From the NCBI GenBank assembly GCA_951406725.2, contig OX597831.1, positions 7,874,001 through 7,938,000 on the forward strand: DNA of 64,000 nt, in the 5' to 3' direction. Position numbers and translations under genes: made by a program. The notes under the pieces are model-generated. The model saw only the letters and a list, made by a program, of their open reading frames with translations. It searched no databases and was not told the origin of the DNA. The stretch's first letter is position 1. Each line of letters begins with the position of its first letter. Positions 8,502 through 29,545 of the stretch are shown here, piece by piece. This DNA comes from Octopus vulgaris (Eukaryota).

Positions 8502-11500
8502 GTAAGCCGTTTCATTTGTTCAAAAATATTTTCCTGATTTTCTATTCTTATGTTCTCATTTTGTGATTTTCTGTTTAAAATGTTACCCCCATATGAGATG
8601 CAGTTAAAAAAAATAATTGACTGAGAGCTAATTATTACTAAATTTTTAAAAAAATACTTTATTCTAGTATTGACCAAATGGCAGGATTGATGAAGAATGC
8701 AATTGAAAATGGTGATAAACTTGAGAAAGAACTTATACTCGATAATGGAGACTTTTATATCGATGAAGTAAGTTAAATTGTTATTATATTCATCAACCTC
8801 AACATTTAATGTCCATTTTCCATGCTGACATGGGTTGAATGGTTTGACATGGAACCGGTCGGCTGAGAGCTACCTGGGTCCCAGTTTTCTGTTTTGGCAA
8901 GGTTTCTATGACTGGATGCTTTTCATAATGTTAACCACTCTACAGAAGGTAATAAGTGCTTTTAAGCAGCACCAGCAAGTGGGGGTGCAATGGTCCAGTG
9001 GTTAGGGCAGTGGACTTGCGGTCGGAAGATCGCGATTTAAATTCCCAGACCGGGCGTTGTGTGTGTTTATTAAGCGAAAGCACCTAAAGCTCCACGAGGC
9101 TCCGGCAGGGGTGGTGGCGGCCCCTATTGTACTCTTTCGCTCCAACTCTCTCTCACTCTTTCTTCCTGTTTCTTGTCCCCGACTTCCTACGCAACCGCTG
9201 AGCCTGGATGTGCATTCATCCATCTGTCGATGCTCTCGGTCTCGGGGGTTTACCTGCTTTCTCTTCTGCGGGTCTTACGAATAGCAAAGGACGACGTTTC
9301 GGACTTCTCCCATCTTGCGAGCTCTGGGACGAAGACCGTTCACTCAACAGCAACAGCAGCACATGTGCTTTTATGTGGTACCAGCGCCTATGGGCCCACA
9401 AAATTGGGATCAGACAGCTAAAGAGGGATCCAGGAGACATGCTTGTATGCAAGGACAACCACCATTTTACTCAGCTCGATGTGTCTTCTCAAGAAGTCAC
9501 CAGAAGTCTTGGTTCCTTGTCATCTCTTCGGTGAGGCCCAACATTTGAAGATCCTTTCTCACCACTTTGTCCCACGTCCTTCTGGGTCTACTCCTTCAAC
9601 ACATTGCCTCCACCATTAGAGACTGGCATTTCTAGTCTTCTTTGAAGAATATGCCTGGCCTTGGAGAAATATTCCCTTGCTTGCAAACAGGTGAGGGTTG
9701 GGGCCAGGAAAAGCATTCAGTCATAGAAAGTCTACCTGACATTCTCAAGCATGGAAAAGTGGACATTAAATAATAATGATGATGATGATGATGATGATGA
9801 CAACGACCATCATCATCATCATCACTATATTGTATTTTCTTCAATGTCCAAGGAATCTATATAATAATCTACTTGTTTGTTCACTCATTATATATTAGTT
9901 AGTTAGAGAGGTGGAGGTGGAAGGCAGGGGGAGCTGGCAGAAACGTTAGCACGCCGGGCAAAATGCTTAGTGATATTTCATCTGTCTTTGGGTTCTGAGT
10001 CCAAATTCCACCAAGGTCGACTTTGCCTTTCTTCATTTTGGCGGGGTTGATAAATTAAATACCAGTTGTGTACTAGGGTTGATCTAATTGACTGGTCCCC
10101 TCCCCCAAAATTTTTGGGCCTTGTATCTAGAGTAGAAAAGAGAGAGAGAGAGAGGACGAGTGAAGAAAGAAGAGAGGAAGAAGTAGAGAAAGGTGATAAA
10201 TATTAAAACACTTGGACCAAATGGCCACATGACCAGCTGAAGGTGGAGGTGAAGAAGAAGAGAAAAAGAGGAGAGAGAAGTGTTAAGGAGATGCAGTGGG
10301 GTGGGGGGAAGCAGTACTTATTAACATGGTTAAAAAGTTAGCTGAAGGGAAAGATAGAGAGAGAGAGAGGGACAAGGGAGGCAGTGGTATTGAGAGAGAG
10401 AGAGAGGCAGGTAGCGGTGGTGGTTGTGGTGGTGTGTTGATAGTGAAAAGTTTTTTTTTTTTTATAGTGACCATCACTATAAAAATGCAATTATTTATTT
10501 TCTGCTCATTAAAAAAAATTGATATTTGTTTATAAAGGTTAATTTAGCTTAAACTCGGGATTCACGAGAAACCCAATTGCAAGCTGCCCGAGGAAGGATG
10601 TGCAGATATAGAGCAGGGATCAGAGAGGAACAGCAAGAAGATATAATAAAAAGAGGGAAAAAACAACACTGAGGAATTACAACCGTGTTTCGTGGTCTGC
10701 TACCACAACAGCTCCTTTATAGGATCCAGTTAGCTCAAGACATCATCAGGAGGAACCACGTCCGGTTTTGGCCCCTACTCCTCTACCGTTTTGACGTGGC
10801 GGGGCCCCCCTTTCGGAGGTGTCTTCAGCTCTGGTGTTAGGTGCATGTCTTCTTTCTTCTCTTCCCTGGCCTCTTCGATGTATCGTCAGCGAGTGTCAGC
10901 CGGTGACTGACTGACTTGTCAAATTTTTCCCTTTAAATACCTGCCACTAGGCTCCAGCAGGCAGCCCCAGCAAGTTGTCACGTGACACTGTCTCACCTTA
11001 ACTGACTAGTGAAGGCGCGTAGTTTTAGCCCGCACTTTTTCTAAACGACCGTCACCTGTCAGTCAGTGAAGCTGATTCAGTCAGCTAGTCTCACCTAATG
11101 ATGTTATTTCCCGTCAGCGTGTTTATGACTTTCAAGCCATTTTCAGTCTTCCCGCTTCAGCCATATATAGAAGCTGGCTTTTTCGACCGCCTCCTGTACT
11201 CTCCTTATTAGTTTACGCAGCTCGGGGCTAGAAAAAACAAATCTTCTTTTGAATAGCATTGTCATTTTCTTTTCAATGAAGCCTCTAGCCCCCACTGCCA
11301 GGAGACGGGAGGAAATGAATGTAGACAAACGTGGAGAATATTTAATAAAAGGCTAAACTATGAAGGCTATGGAAATGCAAATCATCTTTTCTTTCTCAAA
11401 CAGGTCCTGTTAATTTTTTTGCATTCCATAGAATTTCCATGAGTCCTGCTAGTATTATATAACTTCCTTATAGGTTTCTCTATTGTGAAATAATAAATGA

Positions 11501-17700: not shown

Positions 17701-19943
17701 TTTCTATTCACACTATTTGGAATTAATCCTGCATTAACTCTCGTAGCTTTGAGATTTCAATGATGTTATTGTTTATTTCTAAAATGACATTGTCAGGTAG
17801 GTGTGAGTGACCTGATCTGGCCAGTTTGTACATAAAACAGCTAAAATATTTCACTGGTTTAAATGCTAAAGAGTTAAGCTCTTTATTTTTCACACTCAGT
17901 AGGTCCTTCTTAAAAATTTCTGCTTCGACAAACAAGACCGTCCCTCAAATAGAAAATCCTTCACTCTTCAGCTCAGGCATGTCTGTCTTACTAAAAAGTT
18001 TGCTTTGAAACCATAGGGTCTTAAGTTCAATCTCTGTGTGAAGTACTTTTGGAAAAGGGCCTCCTGCCATAGTATTATATTGAACAATACTTTGTGAATG
18101 GAATTGGTTAATGGAAACTGTGCAGAAGCACCGAGCTGGTAGAATCGTTGGCATGCTAGGCGAAATGCTTAGCGGTATTTTGTCTGCCGCTACGTTCTGA
18201 GTTCAAATTCCGCTGAGGTCGACTTTGCCTTTCATCCTTTCGGGCTCGATTAAATTAAGTACCAGTTATGTGCTGGGGTCGATATAATCGACTTAATCCG
18301 TTTGTCCTCTCTGTGTTTAGCCCCTTGCGGGTAGTAAAGAAATAAATAGGAAACTGTGCAGAAGCCTTATGTATATCATTATCATTATCATTTTAATATC
18401 CAGTTTTCCATGTTTGCATGGCATTGATGTAGTTCACTGAGGCAGAATTTTCTCAGTTGGATGCTCTTCGTGCCAATAACCTCACCTGTTTTCAAAGAAG
18501 GTAGAATTTCCCCCTTGGCCATAAAAGATTGGAAATGAACTACACTGCTAGTATGGCAGTGAAAGTCGTTTACAACTAGCATGCAATGTCAAGACAAGGA
18601 CACACACGTGCGGTTCTGAAGCAAACTTCTCATGTTCCCAATTATGTCTGCCCCTTTTGTATTTCTAAAACCTAAATTTTTTTTTTTCTTCTCTATGATG
18701 AAAACCAAGTTTTCTGCTTGGGAATTCCTTCCTTCAGAAGTTTAAACCCAATTTCTTGTCTCTTTCAACAGGTTCCTCTCTGGCCTGAGGAAGATATCAA
18801 AAAGCATAATGAAAGCTACAATTTTGACAGATCCTCGAAACTGAAAGAAATTTTCTTTGACCTTTTCACAGAATTTAATACACAACCTCCCTCACTGAAT
18901 TATGAGAAAATGGTGCGAAAAACTGTCTTTTCAATTTTTGTTACATTTTTGTTTTCCTTTGAATACATTTCTGTCAGGTGATGACAGAGAATCGTCATTG
19001 GCATTGCTTTCATCATTGTCGTCGTCGTCATTGTCATCATTATTATCATCACCACCAGTGCCATCACCATCATTTCTGTGTCCTCCTTTCGTGCTGCATG
19101 TGATGGGTCAGTCAGTTTGTTATGGACTGAGCCAGCTCTTACTCAATGTTTCTGACCATCCAAAGAGGTCAAGGTTGAAGACCACATCTCTCACTCATGG
19201 AATCTATTTTTGGCATGTTTCCTGCAACAGGATACTCATTCTAATGCCAACAACTTTACAAATTGTTCTAGGCATGTTTCATTGTGGCACCCATACCAGA
19301 GAGGTTACCTTGTTCCCAGCAAGTCTATATAAAGGAGCTCTAGGCCTTAAGATATAAAGTCTGTATCTGTTCACCAATTGTTTGACAGAGTATAGAATTG
19401 AAACATGCCTCAGTTAATTCCATTTCCATGTCTTTTTAAGTCAACTGTGTGGGGTCCGGCATTTCAACGAATAGACCCAGCAGTTCCTTTGCATGCTGTA
19501 AAAGGTGACTAAAAGAGGTTGAGGTAGGATTTGCACTTGTAAAACCTTGTAAAACCCTCAATAGCAATGACTACACAGACATAGCCATGGGTTAGAGGGT
19601 TGTCGTCAAAGTGGTGCAAAGGCATCATCCACCAGGTGTAACAGGTAATCGCCAATACATGTTGGATGCAGCAACACACTGTTATAGCACATGCTTTCAC
19701 ACTGCTACTACTACCACTACCACCACTACTACTACTACTACAACTACTACCACCACTGCCACTACTACTACCACCACTACTACTACTACTACTACCACCA
19801 CTGCCACTACTACTACCACCACTACTACTACTACCACAACTACTGCCACTACTACCACTACTACTACCACTACTGCCACTCCCACCACTGCCACTACTAC
19901 TACTACCACTACTACCACCACCACTACTACTACTACCACTACT

Positions 19944-22439: not shown

Positions 22440-23379
22440 CACACACACTCACACACACACACACGCACATATATGTATGTGTATATATATATGACGTGCT
22501 TCCACACAGTTTCTGTCTACCAGATTCCCTTAGAAGATGCTGGCCAGCCTGGGGCTATGGTAGTGGACACTTGCCCATGGTGTTGCCCAATGGAACTGAA
22601 CCTGAACACACTTTCTTACCAAGGGAACTCCTTCCCCACACAGTTGTGCTTTCTCCCCCTCCCCCCTCACCATCCTAATCACTTGAAATAGAATACAAAT
22701 CAATACATCTCAATTCATATCGATTTCATTGAAAGTAATCTTTAATGTTTTACTGTTTCTCTGTTGAAGCTGCTCTATTTCTGCTCCAAGCCGTCCATGT
22801 TTGAGGGCTTCACTCGTGCACTCAGCCTCTCTTGTATTGCAAACTCAATCAGAGACAAAGGCCTCTCCGCCATCTCTGCTTCACAATTCCCAATTGAAGT
22901 GTAAGTACTTTTCTGTCTCACAACACTTTATTCACGTCTTCCATGCTTTCCATTTCTCTTTGTTTTGTTGCTGCATTTTTTTTTTTTGCTAATCTCGTCT
23001 TTTGTTTTTGAGTTTTTGTTTCTTGTCCTTTGTCTCTCATCTATTTGGGCCAACACATTTTATAATTATATTCATGGCTTTTTCTTCTCTCCCTCCTTCC
23101 TCCATCCTCTCTCTCTCTCTTTTTGTGTGTATATATATATATATATATAAGTAGTTGAATGAATTATCCTAGTATGGATAATTATCACTATGGACTCCGT
23201 GTGGGCAGTCATCTAAAAGTTTTTGTTCATCATGATGCTGACATAAGTTCCTTGTCTTTCCTGATGAGAAGGCGGCATAATGCACCCCTAATTCCTTCGA
23301 AATTAGGAATATGCAGTCTTCGAAACATATGTCAAGAATAAAGGAATTTTGTTAAATCGTCGTTCAACTCCATTCTTTC

Positions 23380-23442
<63 letters not shown>

Positions 23443-24755
23443 CCAGTGGTTAGGGCAGCGGACTTGCGGTCGGAGGATCGCGGTTTCGATTCCCAGACCG
23501 GGCGTTGTGTGTGTTTATTGAGCGAAAACACCTAAAAGCTCCACGAGGCTCCGGCAGGGGATGGTGGTGATCCCTGCTGTACTCTTTCACCACTCTAAAG
23601 GCGGTGCCCCAGCATGGCCGCAGTCAAATGACTGAAACAAGTACAAAAAAAAAAAAAAAATATATATTTCTTCTTTCTTATACAAGAAGTGACTTTGAAG
23701 TTTCAGCCAGTTAAACCTTCACCGGTCTGCCAATGATGGCTTAACTGGCTGAAAACTTCAAATTTATTACAACTGAACATATAAACAAACATTAACACAC
23801 ACACACAGAGGTAGATGGCCCTGCTAGATGTCCTTGCTCAATCCGTAGGAAAGTCATAGGACACAAGAGATGCAATGATATCAGAGGAAGGTTAACAGAG
23901 AAACAAGCTTTTGTGTGTCAAAGGTGCACAAGTACGATTAAAAGTGTACAGAAAATAGAATCCATTAAATGCCAGGGTTGGGGGGAACTAGAAGTAGTTC
24001 ATAGCTTCCGTCACCTAGGTGACCAAGTCAATAGCAGGGGGTGGATGCTCAGAGAGCGTAGCTGCTAGAATAAGAATAGGCTGGGCAAAGGTCAGAGAGT
24101 TCCTACCTCTGTAGGAGGTAACAAAAGGTTTCTCCCTCAGAGTGAAAGGCAGATTGTATGATGCCTGTGTGCGAACAGCCATGCTACATGGCAAGGAAAC
24201 ATGGGCTGTGACCGCTGAGGACATGCGCAGGCTTGAAAGAAATGAAGCCAACATGCTTCGTTGGATGTGCAATGTCAGTGGGCATGTGCGACAGAATGTT
24301 AGCATCTTGAGAGGAAAATTGGGCATAAGATGTGATGGGCAAAAGAGATGACTGTGCTGGTATGGTCATGTGATGCATATGGATGTGGACAGCTGTGTGA
24401 AGCAGTGCTGATCTCTACCAGTGGAAGGAAGCTGTGGAAGAGAGAGACCCAGGAAGACATGCGAAAAAGTGTTGAAGCATGCTCTTCAAACATTAGGCCT
24501 CGTGGAGGCAATGACTAATGACTGAGACCTTTGGCAATATACTGTGCTTGAGAAGACCCATCAGGCCAGTTGATATCATTGCTGTGGCCATTGTTGGCTT
24601 CTTGCACCCATGCCAGTGGCTCGTATAATGCACTTTTCGAACATTGGACCTCACACACGCAATGACAAATGACCAAGATCTTTGGAAATATGCTGTGCTT
24701 GAGAAGGAAGAGTCCATCAAGCCAAGTGAAACTGTAGTTGTGGCAGATACTGGTG

Positions 24756-24795
<40 letters not shown>

Positions 24796-27700
24796 ATACA
24801 GGTGAAAGGAATGGATAATCTGGATTATTCACGTGTTTCAGTAGCAAAACGGTAATTATTGTTATTTCCACATTGCCTCACACAACTTGGCATGCAATAA
24901 CATGGAAGATTCTAGAAGATTGTTCGAAAATGTGTTTACATAACAATGCCACTTCATCAGGTCATACTTCTTTAGGGGTTTATTAGGCAATAAACATTAT
25001 AATGGGATTATAATTACATGAAGTTTTCACGTGAAGAGTAATTAAATATACAATTTTATTCGTTTAGGGTTGATGGGGTCTATATAGAATCAGAATGATT
25101 AACTTAGCTAAACAGATTCATTATGCTGAAAAGAAAGGACAAAATCAAAATAGGAGGAGGGTACATTAAGCCAGTGACCAATCAAATTCGTTAATTATGC
25201 AAACTAGACAGATTTATCAGCCTCCCCTGGCTTCCGTGCCAGTGGCACATAAAAGGCACCAACCGATCGTGGCCGTTGCCAGCCTCGCCTGGCACATAAA
25301 AAGCACCCACTACACTCATGGGGTGGTTGGTGTTAGGAAGGGCATCCAACTGTAGAAACACTGCCAGATCAGATTGGCACCTGGTGCAGCCTCCTGGCTT
25401 CCCAGACCCCGGTTGAACTGTCCAACCCATGCTAGCATGGAAAACAGACGTTAAACGATGATGATGATGTCTGCCAATGAAGATTGGTTTTAATCCAGCC
25501 TCTTTTATTCAAAGTGAATGAAGGAGAGAAGGATATAAGTAAATGATAAAAGATATCAGCTCATATTTTTGTTCCTTGCTGTGGAAATCTTTGTGTTGCC
25601 CTTTTTAGAGTCCTATTAGGGCCTCTGGTTTTTGCAGGAAGGAAACTTCTTCATGTGCAAAAACAGCCCCTTGGAAACGCTTGACAAGTCGAAGCTTGCA
25701 TCAGCAAATTGGTTAAACAAATTAATGAAGGTTAGTGTTGCAATAATTAGGTCTGAACTTCCAGAAAATAATTATTTATAAAATAATTATTTATAAAAAT
25801 AAGTTTAAAATGAAAACAGAAACAATTGTTCCCTTCCCCCCTCTCTCTTACCTCTCTCTCTCTCTTTCTCTCTCTCCTACTCTCCACCCCCTACAAGAAC
25901 CAAACCATCCCGAATGTATTGAAGTTTCAGATTATTGTCTTAATTAACTAGTTAACATTTCATTTCTCTGCTAAACCGAGACACGATGGCTTAGAGAAAC
26001 CTATTCAGAGAAACCAAAACCAGCTAAAGATTATGCTGCAGATTATTAGAGAGATGATTTAGTTCAGATATCAGTGATTAGTAATTAATGTTTTGTTTTT
26101 GTTTTTTGCCTCTCTCTATAATTAAAAACTTCACATACGTTTTTTTTTTTTGTTCTTTTTATATCTTCACATTTTAGCTTGGCCTCCTCTTATATATGAT
26201 GCGTCTGAGACATGGCTGAGGGGCAGTCTTTATCATTAGCCATTAAAGAAATTTAAAAAAAAAGGGATTATAAGAGAAACCGTGGGTGGTTGCAGTGATG
26301 TTAATGTCAGCACGATAATGGATGGGAATGGCATAGCATCCTCAGCGAATGTTCATGATGTTTGGTGCCATTCTTTTCTACTCTAGGCACAAGGCCCAAA
26401 ACTTTCGTGAGAGGGGGCCAGTCGATGAGATCAACCCCAGTACGCAACAGAAACGTTCTTGGAGGTTTCTAAAGACAGAAATTCAAATGTCCCATCGTGA
26501 AACATTTGTGGTTGATTAAATGAAGTGATGTGGTCAATTGGTTGAGGTGTTTGGCTGATGATCCCAGGATCATAGATCTGATTCCTACATCAGGTAACAT
26601 GTTGTCTCCTTCATTTCATGTTGCACCATCTTCTCTGTTGAGAGGGAATCCCAACCTAGCACCCGAGCAGCTGTCAGGTCCTCAAATAATCTCCCGAATC
26701 AAGGGGTCAGATGGGTGAGAAAGGGCCTCTGCCTGCTTCTGAATACAGAGAGACTTAAACCAATTAACAAATCCATGCCACATGCTACCAGATCATCATA
26801 TTCATCGATGAGTAACACCTAGATTTTTAAATTTTTTTGTGGGTTTTTTTTTTACTGTAGATGGTTTAAAGTAATTATTCAGTTGGCTGTGATTGTTAAG
26901 GCTTAAAGTATGTTTTCCCAAAACTTATGACCTTAAGAATTTTATTAAGGGAAACTCAAGTTGCTGCCATAATAGAACAGAATTCCCAGTGTGTGTGTGT
27001 GTTTGTACTACTACTACTACTACTTCGGTCCTTAGTTCTGATCTTGTGTGTGTATATACTAACCACCACCACCACCACCACCACTACTACTACTGTTGCT
27101 GCTGCTGCTTGTTTGTTTGTTTGTTTGTTGAGCATTTGGGAGAAGTCCGAAACGTGGTCCTTTGCTATTCGTAAGACCCGCAGAAGAGAAAGCAGGTTAA
27201 CCCCCGACACTGAGAGCATCGACGGATGGATGAATGCGCATCCAGGCTCAGCGGTTGCGTAGGAAGTCGGGGAGGACAAGAAACAGGAAGAAAGAGTCAG
27301 AGAAAGTTGGAGCAAAAGAGTACAACAGGGGCTGCCACCACCCTCTGCCGGACCTCATGGAGCTTTAGGTGTTTTCGCTCAATAAACACACACAACGCCT
27401 GGTCTGGGAATCGAAACTGCGATCCTCCGACCGTGAGTCCACTGCCCTAACCATTGGGTGCTGCTGCTGCTACCCATCCAAGCACCCCAATTTGTGACAC
27501 TATGAGGTTACAAAGCTTCATATGCAAATGTAGCATCATCATCATCATCATCATCATTTTGAAATGTCCATTTTTTTCGTGTTTGTCTGGTTCAGATGGA
27601 ATTTGTTGAGAAAGATTTTCTTTGGCCGGATACCCTTCCTGCCACCAACCTTCATTTGTTGCCAAGCGGGGTTAATTCTGCACCACGGAAGACAGGAAAC

Positions 27701-27841
27701 AAACAACATTTCTTTTATGCTCATTTACAAACATCATGTGATGTCAAGACAAGGGCACACACACACACACACACACACACTTCTACATATTCAATGAATT
27801 TCTTTCAGTTTCTGTTTCCTTAATCCATTCATCTATTTATC

Positions 27842-27888
<47 letters not shown>

Positions 27889-28662
27889 ACCTCGTGAGCA
27901 CCGCCAGCAATTTTTTTTCCTCTGTCTTCCCTTCTCGGGATCTTTCCTTCTCCTTTGTTTCCGACGAAGAGCTCCGCTCGAAACGTTAAACCCTCCTTCT
28001 TCCCTTCTTTCCTGAGCGTCCAATAATACTTTATTTGTTCCACGTCCTCGCGTTGCTGTGTTTTTTTGTGTTTTCTTGTTTGGATTAACTTTATATATAT
28101 ATATTCATACGTGTGTGTGTGTGTGTATGTGTAACAATGATTCAATCACAGATACCAGTGATTAACTTTGACAAATCAGTAAACTAAATCAAGTGTAATC
28201 TTCATTGTCAGGAAAAGTTTCATTGCAATCATCCATGTTTTGTATTGAAAGTGTGTAATCCAGAAATTATTTGTAGCTTCGTTTTTTTTTCTTCTCTAAT
28301 TTCCTTCTCTTTTCTCTGGTAAAGTCTCACTGAAATAGGGTCGTAGTCATGGTTCAAATGTCAGCCACAGAGAATAAAAATAGACGACTTAAATTCAGTC
28401 GCTAAGTAGTTTTAGATTGTCTCTGTCGGCAAAGAGGATTAGGGTAAAAAGATTACAAATATTTAGGAATAACAACATTTTCTGTTTGGTTCCTGTAAAT
28501 ATTCTTGGAAATCTGCAACGTACACTCTCTTTTACCAACACAGGATGATGAAAACAGAGAGAGAGAGAGAGAGGAACGAAAGAAAAAAAGCAAAAAAAAA
28601 GAAAGAAAACCATTCTCATTACTTCTTTGTTTTATATATTTGTATGTATATGAATGTGTGAA

Positions 28663-28714
<52 letters not shown>

Positions 28715-29545
28715 CATACATACATGACTTGCAATTTTCTTTTCTAGCCTAAATGAGATTTCTTGTGACTTGTCTGCAAACGATTAAATTTAATATCAAC
28801 TTGAAAACCAACGAAGCATAGATTCGGACAAATATGTATTTGTGGTGTTTTATTCTTTTTTACTTTTATTGGTTTCAACCCTAAGGCTGTGGCCATGCTG
28901 GGGCACCACCATTAGCATTAATGCTTGTTCATTTTAGACTCATTTCCTGGCTTTGTCTCTGGAATCACTCCTGGTGAAATAGTGAGATGGACAAAGCCAC
29001 CTTTCATCTGGTATACCCAAATAAAAATTTGTTTAGTTGTTCATTGAAGAGATCCACACCTATTCCTTGTAGATCCCTAGGGCCTTTTTGGCAAGGTATT
29101 GAAAAATTGTGGGTGTTTGAACCCTAAGGTGTTTCAAAATTGTAAATTAATGAACAATCACTGTTATTGTTTCTTTCCCTATATTAAGAGCTGATATTCC
29201 AAAGATTGTGATGGAAGCCCCTAAAGAAGAAGTCACTGAAGCAGAGGCTTCTCAGGCTGAAGCACCCGAAGTGCCTGAAGTGGATAAAATAGAATCTGAG
29301 GTTGGAGCAGATGCAGAAAAGAAACCTGAAGCCGGAGTCGCAGACAGTGAAGCTCCCAAAAAATATACTCTGAATCAATTGATACCAATTGGTGCCATTT
29401 TAAAGGTGGGTGTATATATGAATTTGTGATCTTTGTGTGTGTGTGTTTATATACACAGACATACCTGCATGCATACATACATACATACATAAATACATAC
29501 ATACATACATACATACATACATACATACATACGTACGTACGTACG

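Follow-up and report, generated by a model that had tools for sequence, protein, structure and literature searches.

The window, by which we mean the whole 64-kb stretch of DNA analysed, carries SPEF2 on its plus strand. The Pfam domain SPEF2_C extends over four successive exons (model positions 8-60, 54-119, 115-170 and 170-193), and one SPEF2 exon frame was 99% identical to an Octopus vulgaris SPEF2 model, the sole match among 58 candidates. The exon at 22770-22900 is supported by Pfam continuity and by the fit of its 3' phase to the next exon, whose acceptor lies at 29187-88; no further exon was found within the intron between them (22901-29188). The GT donor at 22901 lies 360 nt upstream of a hammerhead core, in agreement with an earlier note on this DNA that had placed a hammerhead in sense orientation within SPEF2, about 360 nt past an exon. 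The public O. vulgaris SPEF2 model (P0001) omits exon 22770-22900 and reads through the preceding donor region (18913-18978); the donor after 18912 is GTGCGA, a weak-looking site. The features of the locus are as follows, with the evidence for each in brackets.

22770..22900, plus strand: SPEF2 coding exon, 131 nt, 3' end in phase 2 (SPEF2_C positions 170-193; AG acceptor, GT donor)
22901..29188, plus strand: SPEF2 intron with the insertion, about 6.3 kb (exon borders and phase)
23130..23149, no strand: (TA)10 tract, left side of the putative target site (sequence)
23150..23183, no strand: second high-copy segment, 34 nt, fused at 23181-83 and elsewhere running into different sequence (contig loose ends)
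23181..23384, plus strand: hammerhead repeat fragment, 5'-truncated and pseudo-LTR-like, of a putative parent element (contig counts, depth gradient)
23232..23253, plus strand: distal stem, 5' arm, extending helix I (fold prediction)
23256..23260, plus strand: helix I, proximal, 5' strand, with position 2.1 at C23260 (fold prediction, Rfam alignment)
23261..23267, plus strand: core box CUGAUGA, C3 to A9 (sequence)
23268..23321, plus strand: nested helix II, 6 + 5 pairs and an inner hairpin (fold prediction)
23322..23333, plus strand: GAAA box, palindromic helix III and GUC triplet (sequence, duplex prediction, Rfam alignment)
23334, plus strand: position 1.1, A here and G in the repeat family (contig variant tables)
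23337..23342, plus strand: AATAAA in the AU-rich 3' flank of the repeat, candidate poly(A) signal (sequence, contigs)
23341..23360, plus strand: distal stem, 3' arm (fold prediction)
23387..23439, no strand: (TA)n tract, right side of the putative target site, followed by the unrelated 5' part of a SINE at 23438-23588 (sequence)

The hammerhead motif in the SPEF2 intron is real. Read from the sequence, the CUGAUGA box on the plus strand is followed by GAAAC (23322-23326), AUAU (23327-23330) and GUC (23331-23333), so that 23261-23333 reads as the type I series CUGANGA ... GAAA ... NUH. The complete core claimed in the earlier note (CUGAUGA, GAAA, GUC) was thus found at 23261-67, 23322-26 and 23331-33, and the hammerhead rule places the predicted scissile bond 3' of 23333, the cut site named there. 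The long nested helix II that had been described was likewise recovered: its base has six pairs (23268-73/23316-21, one of them G-U), followed by a G-A mismatch, five further pairs (23275-79/23310-14) and an inner hairpin. The first six pairs, including G10.1-C11.1, were predicted at probabilities of 0.99-1.0 in four sequence contexts. Helix III (AC-AUAU-GU), described as palindromic, is a perfect 8-nt palindrome at 23325-23332, and AATAAA lies just downstream, also as claimed.

A strict hammerhead descriptor matched once in the 64-kb window and in 0 of 300 dinucleotide shuffles, a result that is generous given that the descriptor was composed after the motif had been seen. CTGATGA alone occurred at chance frequency in the window (13 observed, 12.3 expected), and the fold of 99 nt around the motif had a z-score of -1.93, with 8 of 200 shuffles equally stable. 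At gathering level, Rfam gave no match in the whole window, and an E-value scan of 801 nt returned 16 matches, mostly to TA tracts, with no hammerhead among them. In a 176-nt scan, Hammerhead_1 (RF00163) aligned to 23255-23339 at 13.7 bits (gathering threshold 34, E 1.5). All 45 model positions align and the full core is present; the octopus copy departs from the model by a 50-nt insert in helix II and by non-standard innermost and outermost helix I pairs, the innermost being flagged in the alignment.

The predicted folds of this copy depart from the catalytic form at helices I and III. In register, helix I starts with a C23260-A23334 mismatch, where the type I arrangement calls for closure at 2.1-1.1, and the in-register helix has a probability of at most 0.01. 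Helix III has a probability of 0.0 in the monomer; the palindrome gives a predicted trans duplex of -7.0 kcal/mol, and in the homodimer ensemble trans helix III appears at only about 0.1. The active-like fold, when imposed, has an energy some 6.9 kcal/mol higher than the minimum. A distal stem is predicted to close the motif (about 23232-53 with 23341-60), its first six pairs at probabilities of 0.84-1.0; the earlier note does not mention it. We rejected as catalytic form a 4-bp helix I of 23255-58 with 23334-37, which implies a 2-nt insertion before the core (probability 0.3-0.4), since the family pairs in register.

We sampled the family through assembled contigs of public sequencing runs, placed at 80% identity or more on the 235-nt stretch 23150-23384. 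Among the runs listed, 20 of 24, under four organism labels, contain part of this stretch, and none holds more than 0.67 of the sampled words. Four runs with three organism labels yielded 1588 (X1), 914 (X5), 78 (X12) and 75 (X15) placed contigs; X1 and X5 are DNA runs, X12 and X15 are guessed to be RNA runs, and the contigs carry no RNA ends, circles, strand or level. Summed depth in X1 was 0.09-1.26 million, a sum that is no copy number, and the eight long pieces listed had depths of 24-61. The hammerhead belongs to a very high-copy family, probably with thousands of copies. The window itself contains no second copy of the repeat by blastn or nhmmer over its 64 kb. The description of this motif as the best preserved therefore stands within the window, and does not extend to its repeat family.

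Along the stretch, X1 summed depth climbs 3'-ward from about 0.09-0.27 million (23182-23229) to about 1.2 million (23318-23365), a rise that may partly reflect subfamilies sharing only the 3' part (loose ends at 23316 and 23340). In each of the four runs, contigs have loose ends on both sides of the junction, behind 23183 and before 23181 (24 contigs each in X1), and in other copies the family sequence extends upstream of 23181. The 3' loose ends enter AT/TA-rich sequence (X5, X12, X15). One X12 loose end before 23184 reads by eye as the 5' arm in reverse complement and so represents an inverted neighbour. The 34-nt segment 23150-23183 is possibly an inverted end piece or a Penelope-type tail, which would be expected to measure 30-40 nt. 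No head-to-tail joint was found within the 235 nt in the four runs, where units longer than 235 nt would escape; the sole joint was a 34-nt skip. Loose ends at 23297, 23316 and 23340 also pointed to subfamilies, at least one with a different helix II interior, and another with a different helix III/triplet region and a longer spacer before the distal 3' arm.

The family differs from the SPEF2-intron copy at the nucleotide next to the predicted cut. At 23334 the family letter is G in 99.6, 99.8, 97.2 and 100% of depth (X1, X5, X12, X15), and the window letter, A, accounts for at most 0.4% in X1 and X5. With G at 1.1, helix I of the family closes in register at 2.1-1.1 (C-G) and has 4-5 pairs. 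The helix I called imperfect in the earlier note does contain an in-register mismatch, which we explain as damage to this copy, since the family G at 23334 pairs. The variant rows listed include none for 23260 or for the CUGAUGA box; at G12 and C17 variation stays at or below 1% in X1 and X5, but reaches 10% and 17% in X12, from two contigs in each case. The variants at 23272 (G/A) and 23317 (C/U), tallied per site, are compatible with a G-C to A-U exchange in helix II. A second change, at 23290, is near-private to the SPEF2-intron copy, the family carrying another letter in 88.6-100% of depth.

The A at 23334 is probably a CpG transition. A G-to-A change at CpG is the commonest natural change. 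Although the SPEF2-intron copy retains all catalytic core letters, the C-A pair beside the cut likely leaves it weak or inactive as a ribozyme, although slow cleavage may still occur. According to a review, cleavage suffers most from a mismatch in the innermost pairs of stem I or stem III (PMC8495972), and in Fig. S3 of PMC4209133 all 56 of 56 rows have a Watson-Crick 2.1-1.1 pair, a count made by eye and partly forced by the descriptor. Rescue by a dimer is doubtful: the dimer model builds helix I from one strand of each partner, and the C2.1 of a family partner would still oppose A1.1 of this copy. Being damaged at the most sensitive pair, the single copy matters little.

We compared the repeat with published hammerheads of Penelope-like elements (PLEs). 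These combine a long helix II, a short helix I, a palindromic helix III and U-rich 5' and AU-rich 3' flanks, and most of those reported are truncated copies standing alone (Cervera and de la Pena, 2014, PMC4209133). The octopus repeat has the same type I topology and a long helix II with G10.1-C11.1, and its family agrees in having a helix I of 4-5 bp, a helix III of 2 bp around a palindromic 4-nt loop, flanks rich in U on the 5' side and in AU on the 3' side, and very many solitary copies. It differs in a much longer nested helix II (54 nt) and a closing distal stem of about 20 nt, both exceeding those of the published motifs compared; the SPEF2-intron copy differs further in its 2.1-1.1 mismatch and in having no linked PLE ORF. 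The min-HHR consensus has an additional nucleotide between A9 and G10.1; here G23268 follows A9 directly, and two rows of Fig. S3, one of them PLE-linked, lack that nucleotide as well (PMC4209133). Small palindromic helix III hammerheads are shown for D. virilis, Aedes aegypti and shrimp, and in the same figure for Saccoglossus family 2 (PMC4209133), the nearest of the published rows compared, which also has no extra base after A9, a 2-bp helix III and a palindromic 4-nt loop.

Taken with these likenesses, the insertion structure suggests a fairly probable reading: a type I hammerhead in one copy of a mass octopus repeat, likely the 5'-truncated end of a Penelope-like pseudo-LTR in a (TA)n target, and likely weak or inactive. 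The architecture matches published Penelope-like pseudo-LTR hammerheads, and by this analogy the repeat is probably a member. High copy number, dispersal and 5' truncation, all expected of such a pseudo-LTR, are found in the contig counts, the gradient and the loose ends. A microsatellite or AT-rich target is also expected, and (TA)n lies on both sides, a weak point given that TA tracts are common in the genome. The depth gradient and flanks fit the end of a retroelement that was truncated on its 5' side and carries a short additional piece, by analogy with PLE insertions, for which microsatellite bias in some clades and short extra pieces (bioRxiv 2021.04.23.441226), as well as inverted neighbours (also PMC11167929), have been described. 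Penelope-like elements cover 6.83% of O. vulgaris (PMC13282606); the supplement to that study makes no mention of hammerheads. Full-length Penelope-like members would have an ORF for reverse transcriptase plus GIY-YIG next to the repeat; Pfam detected no match to either in the 140 of 293 filtered window frames covered (9.0-37.6 kb). The anole element has an ORF that begins within the hammerhead core. We rejected an equivalent here, since reading by eye from the core ATG meets a stop after about 25 codons, and the frame overlapping this one had no Pfam match.

Under a Penelope-like origin, intact copies would close a 4-5 bp helix I in register, and two family RNAs would pair through the palindromic helix III. 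The precursor RNA of the element would then be cut, probably with the aid of a protein of that element, for which anole Poseidon is the precedent. The copy in the SPEF2 intron would have arisen when reverse transcription, starting at the 3' end of the element, placed a truncated copy in a (TA)n tract, and a CpG transition at 1.1 would later have degraded it. It would now be transcribed solely as a passenger of the pre-mRNA and spliced out without effect. In published tests, cleavage was absent for a lone S. mansoni motif and weak for dimers (PMC4209133), and the anole Poseidon ribozyme required the element's protein, with no RNA-seq reads ending at the site (PMC11167929).

The main rival to a Penelope-like origin is that the repeat comes from a non-LTR retrozyme of the non-autonomous type, or from a SINE-like hammerhead element, itself mobilised by Penelope proteins, and is present as a solo monomer degenerate at 1.1, which we regard as unlikely though worth keeping in mind. 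Retrozymes are tandem repeats of 170-400 nt, each with a hammerhead, that give abundant linear and circular monomer RNAs; mussel and coral retrozymes are on record, as are solo monomers (PMC7229834; bioRxiv 2026.07.22.740005), and the latter are often intronic, in Xenopus for about 43% of copies (PMC7229834; bioRxiv 10.64898/2026.07.22.740005). The octopus repeat resembles them as a short, AT-rich, ORF-less repeat with a type I hammerhead, its very high copy number without a linked ORF would be accommodated, family members occur in the two runs guessed to be RNA (X12, X15), and a compact and perhaps circular RNA would be in keeping with the long distal stem. It is unlike them in lacking the canonical loop 1-loop 2 geometry and contacts and the 4-bp helix II. 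No tandem arrangement was seen either, neither as a second copy in the window nor as a joint inside the 235 nt (longer units aside), and the 3' loose ends lead into AT/TA-rich sequence and not into a next unit.

The earlier note had proposed a potentially active ribozyme, probably working as a dimer, together with a cryptic poly(A) signal. The octopus motif does belong to the type I hammerheads that act as dimers, yet the SPEF2-intron copy is a weak candidate for activity because of its mismatch to the family at 1.1, the lack of a cis dimer and the trans helix III probability of about 0.1. That this copy acts as an active ribozyme in a dimer, or as a used intronic poly(A) site, and so trims or truncates the SPEF2 pre-mRNA, is accordingly improbable in our assessment. 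Activity is favoured by the intact core, by a position in sense 360 nt past the donor, and by the palindrome of helix III, which could pair with abundant family RNAs. Against it stand the C-A at 2.1-1.1, where the family has C-G and a dimer partner would bring the same C2.1, the absence of a cis partner in 64 kb, and the rarity of trans helix III in the predicted homodimer. Intronic hammerheads are known in amniotes (PMC3088659, PMC6765202), and the octopus motif shares with those of RECK and C10orf118 its placement within a protein-coding gene's intron. The amniote motifs show conservation between species and tertiary contacts that stabilise them, C10 being active and pseudoknot-stabilised (PMC3088659), whereas the octopus motif is a mutated member of a mass repeat. 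The anole PLE gave no RNA-seq reads ending at its cut site (PMC11167929). The suggested role in SPEF2 is thus unsupported, the motif being part of a very high-copy repeat, departing from its family at A1.1 and having no cis partner in the window.

The AATAAA belongs to the repeat: its sole listed variant, at 23338, leaves about 75% of X1/X5 (DNA) depth with the window letter, and the published Penelope-like hammerhead consensus likewise has an AU-rich 3' flank (PMC4209133). Its use as a poly(A) signal in uncut RNA is possible on sequence grounds, and a U-rich stretch follows it. Against such use, AATAAA is present at background density, with five occurrences in the SPEF2 intron (22901-29188) and 67 on the plus strand of the window (1.05 per kb). 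A cut at 23333, if it occurs, would place the signal on the 3' product.

A further possibility is that the A at 23334 is an assembly error or a single allele and that the true locus has an intact, family-type motif. No contig among those listed spans the locus, and the scarcity of A in X1/X5 depth and the ceiling of 0.67 of sampled words in the listed runs would be compatible with such an error. Nevertheless, an allele at a single copy among very many is expected to contribute only a tiny share of depth, a CpG G-to-A change is commonplace, and the near-private change at 23290 also indicates an aged copy, so that we consider an error or allele very improbable. Chance resemblance to the hammerhead consensus is negligible and largely refuted by the repeat-family contigs: despite the Rfam score far under the gathering threshold and the chance frequency of CTGATGA alone, the descriptor was matched by none of the shuffles, and the family has the 1.1 pair and keeps G12 and C17.

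The octopus family would add to the known, very widespread Penelope-type hammerheads. In the literature searched, which excluded most subscription papers, Repbase and some supplements, we found no description of an octopus hammerhead family; for giant squid, 235 Rfam hammerhead_1 loci are on record (PMC6962438). Folds of nascent prefixes may point to a further property of the family. In prefixes ending at 23334-23346, segment 23239-45 is predicted to pair with the helix III/triplet strand (23328-23334) at a probability of 0.9-1.0; this blocking pairing falls to 0.05 at prefix end 23352, being displaced once the 3' arm (23341-52) has been made. Blocking by the 5' arm could therefore time folding in the family, as modelled from the SPEF2-intron copy.

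Combining these points, we offer as a long shot that octopus has a mass family of Penelope-type hammerheads in which a 54-nt nested helix II and a closing stem act as a co-transcriptional timer, and in which sense-intronic copies are selected to lose only the substrate side (1.1). If this were true, loss at 1.1 would spare the host pre-mRNA, and the enzyme half would still cut family RNAs in trans via the shared palindrome. The family could be useful in its own right: with very many copies in a genome of long introns, one can ask directly whether selection removes hammerheads able to cleave from intronic sense strands.

Other elements in the window deserve brief mention. A SINE family, tRNA-type by eye, has copies at 8990-9345 (plus strand), 27137-27457 (minus strand) and 23438-23588 (plus strand, 5' part only); ARAGORN predicted no tRNA genes. 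The SINE ends with an antisense hammerhead-like half (9285-9345, minus strand; 27137-27165, plus strand), in which a helix II-like hairpin precedes GAAAC and a GUC triplet, while the CUGAUGA box has either decayed or been truncated away. These halves had no Rfam hammerhead match, and the SINE may have a Penelope-derived tail. A pattern scan had also suggested three metagenome loci as relatives of the motif (L001:1961-2021, L002:3488-3548 and L003:1068-1128), which were rejected as such, only about 30 nt around the helix III word being common with the window; they are near-identical contigs with CUGAUGA and the same helix III word, and the L002 locus sits between frames that by eye resemble LINE reverse-transcriptase fragments. 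Shortly after the SINE in the SPEF2 intron, 23796-24365 appears by eye to be a decayed RTE-type LINE-like fragment, with a weak PHD-finger match (E 0.063).
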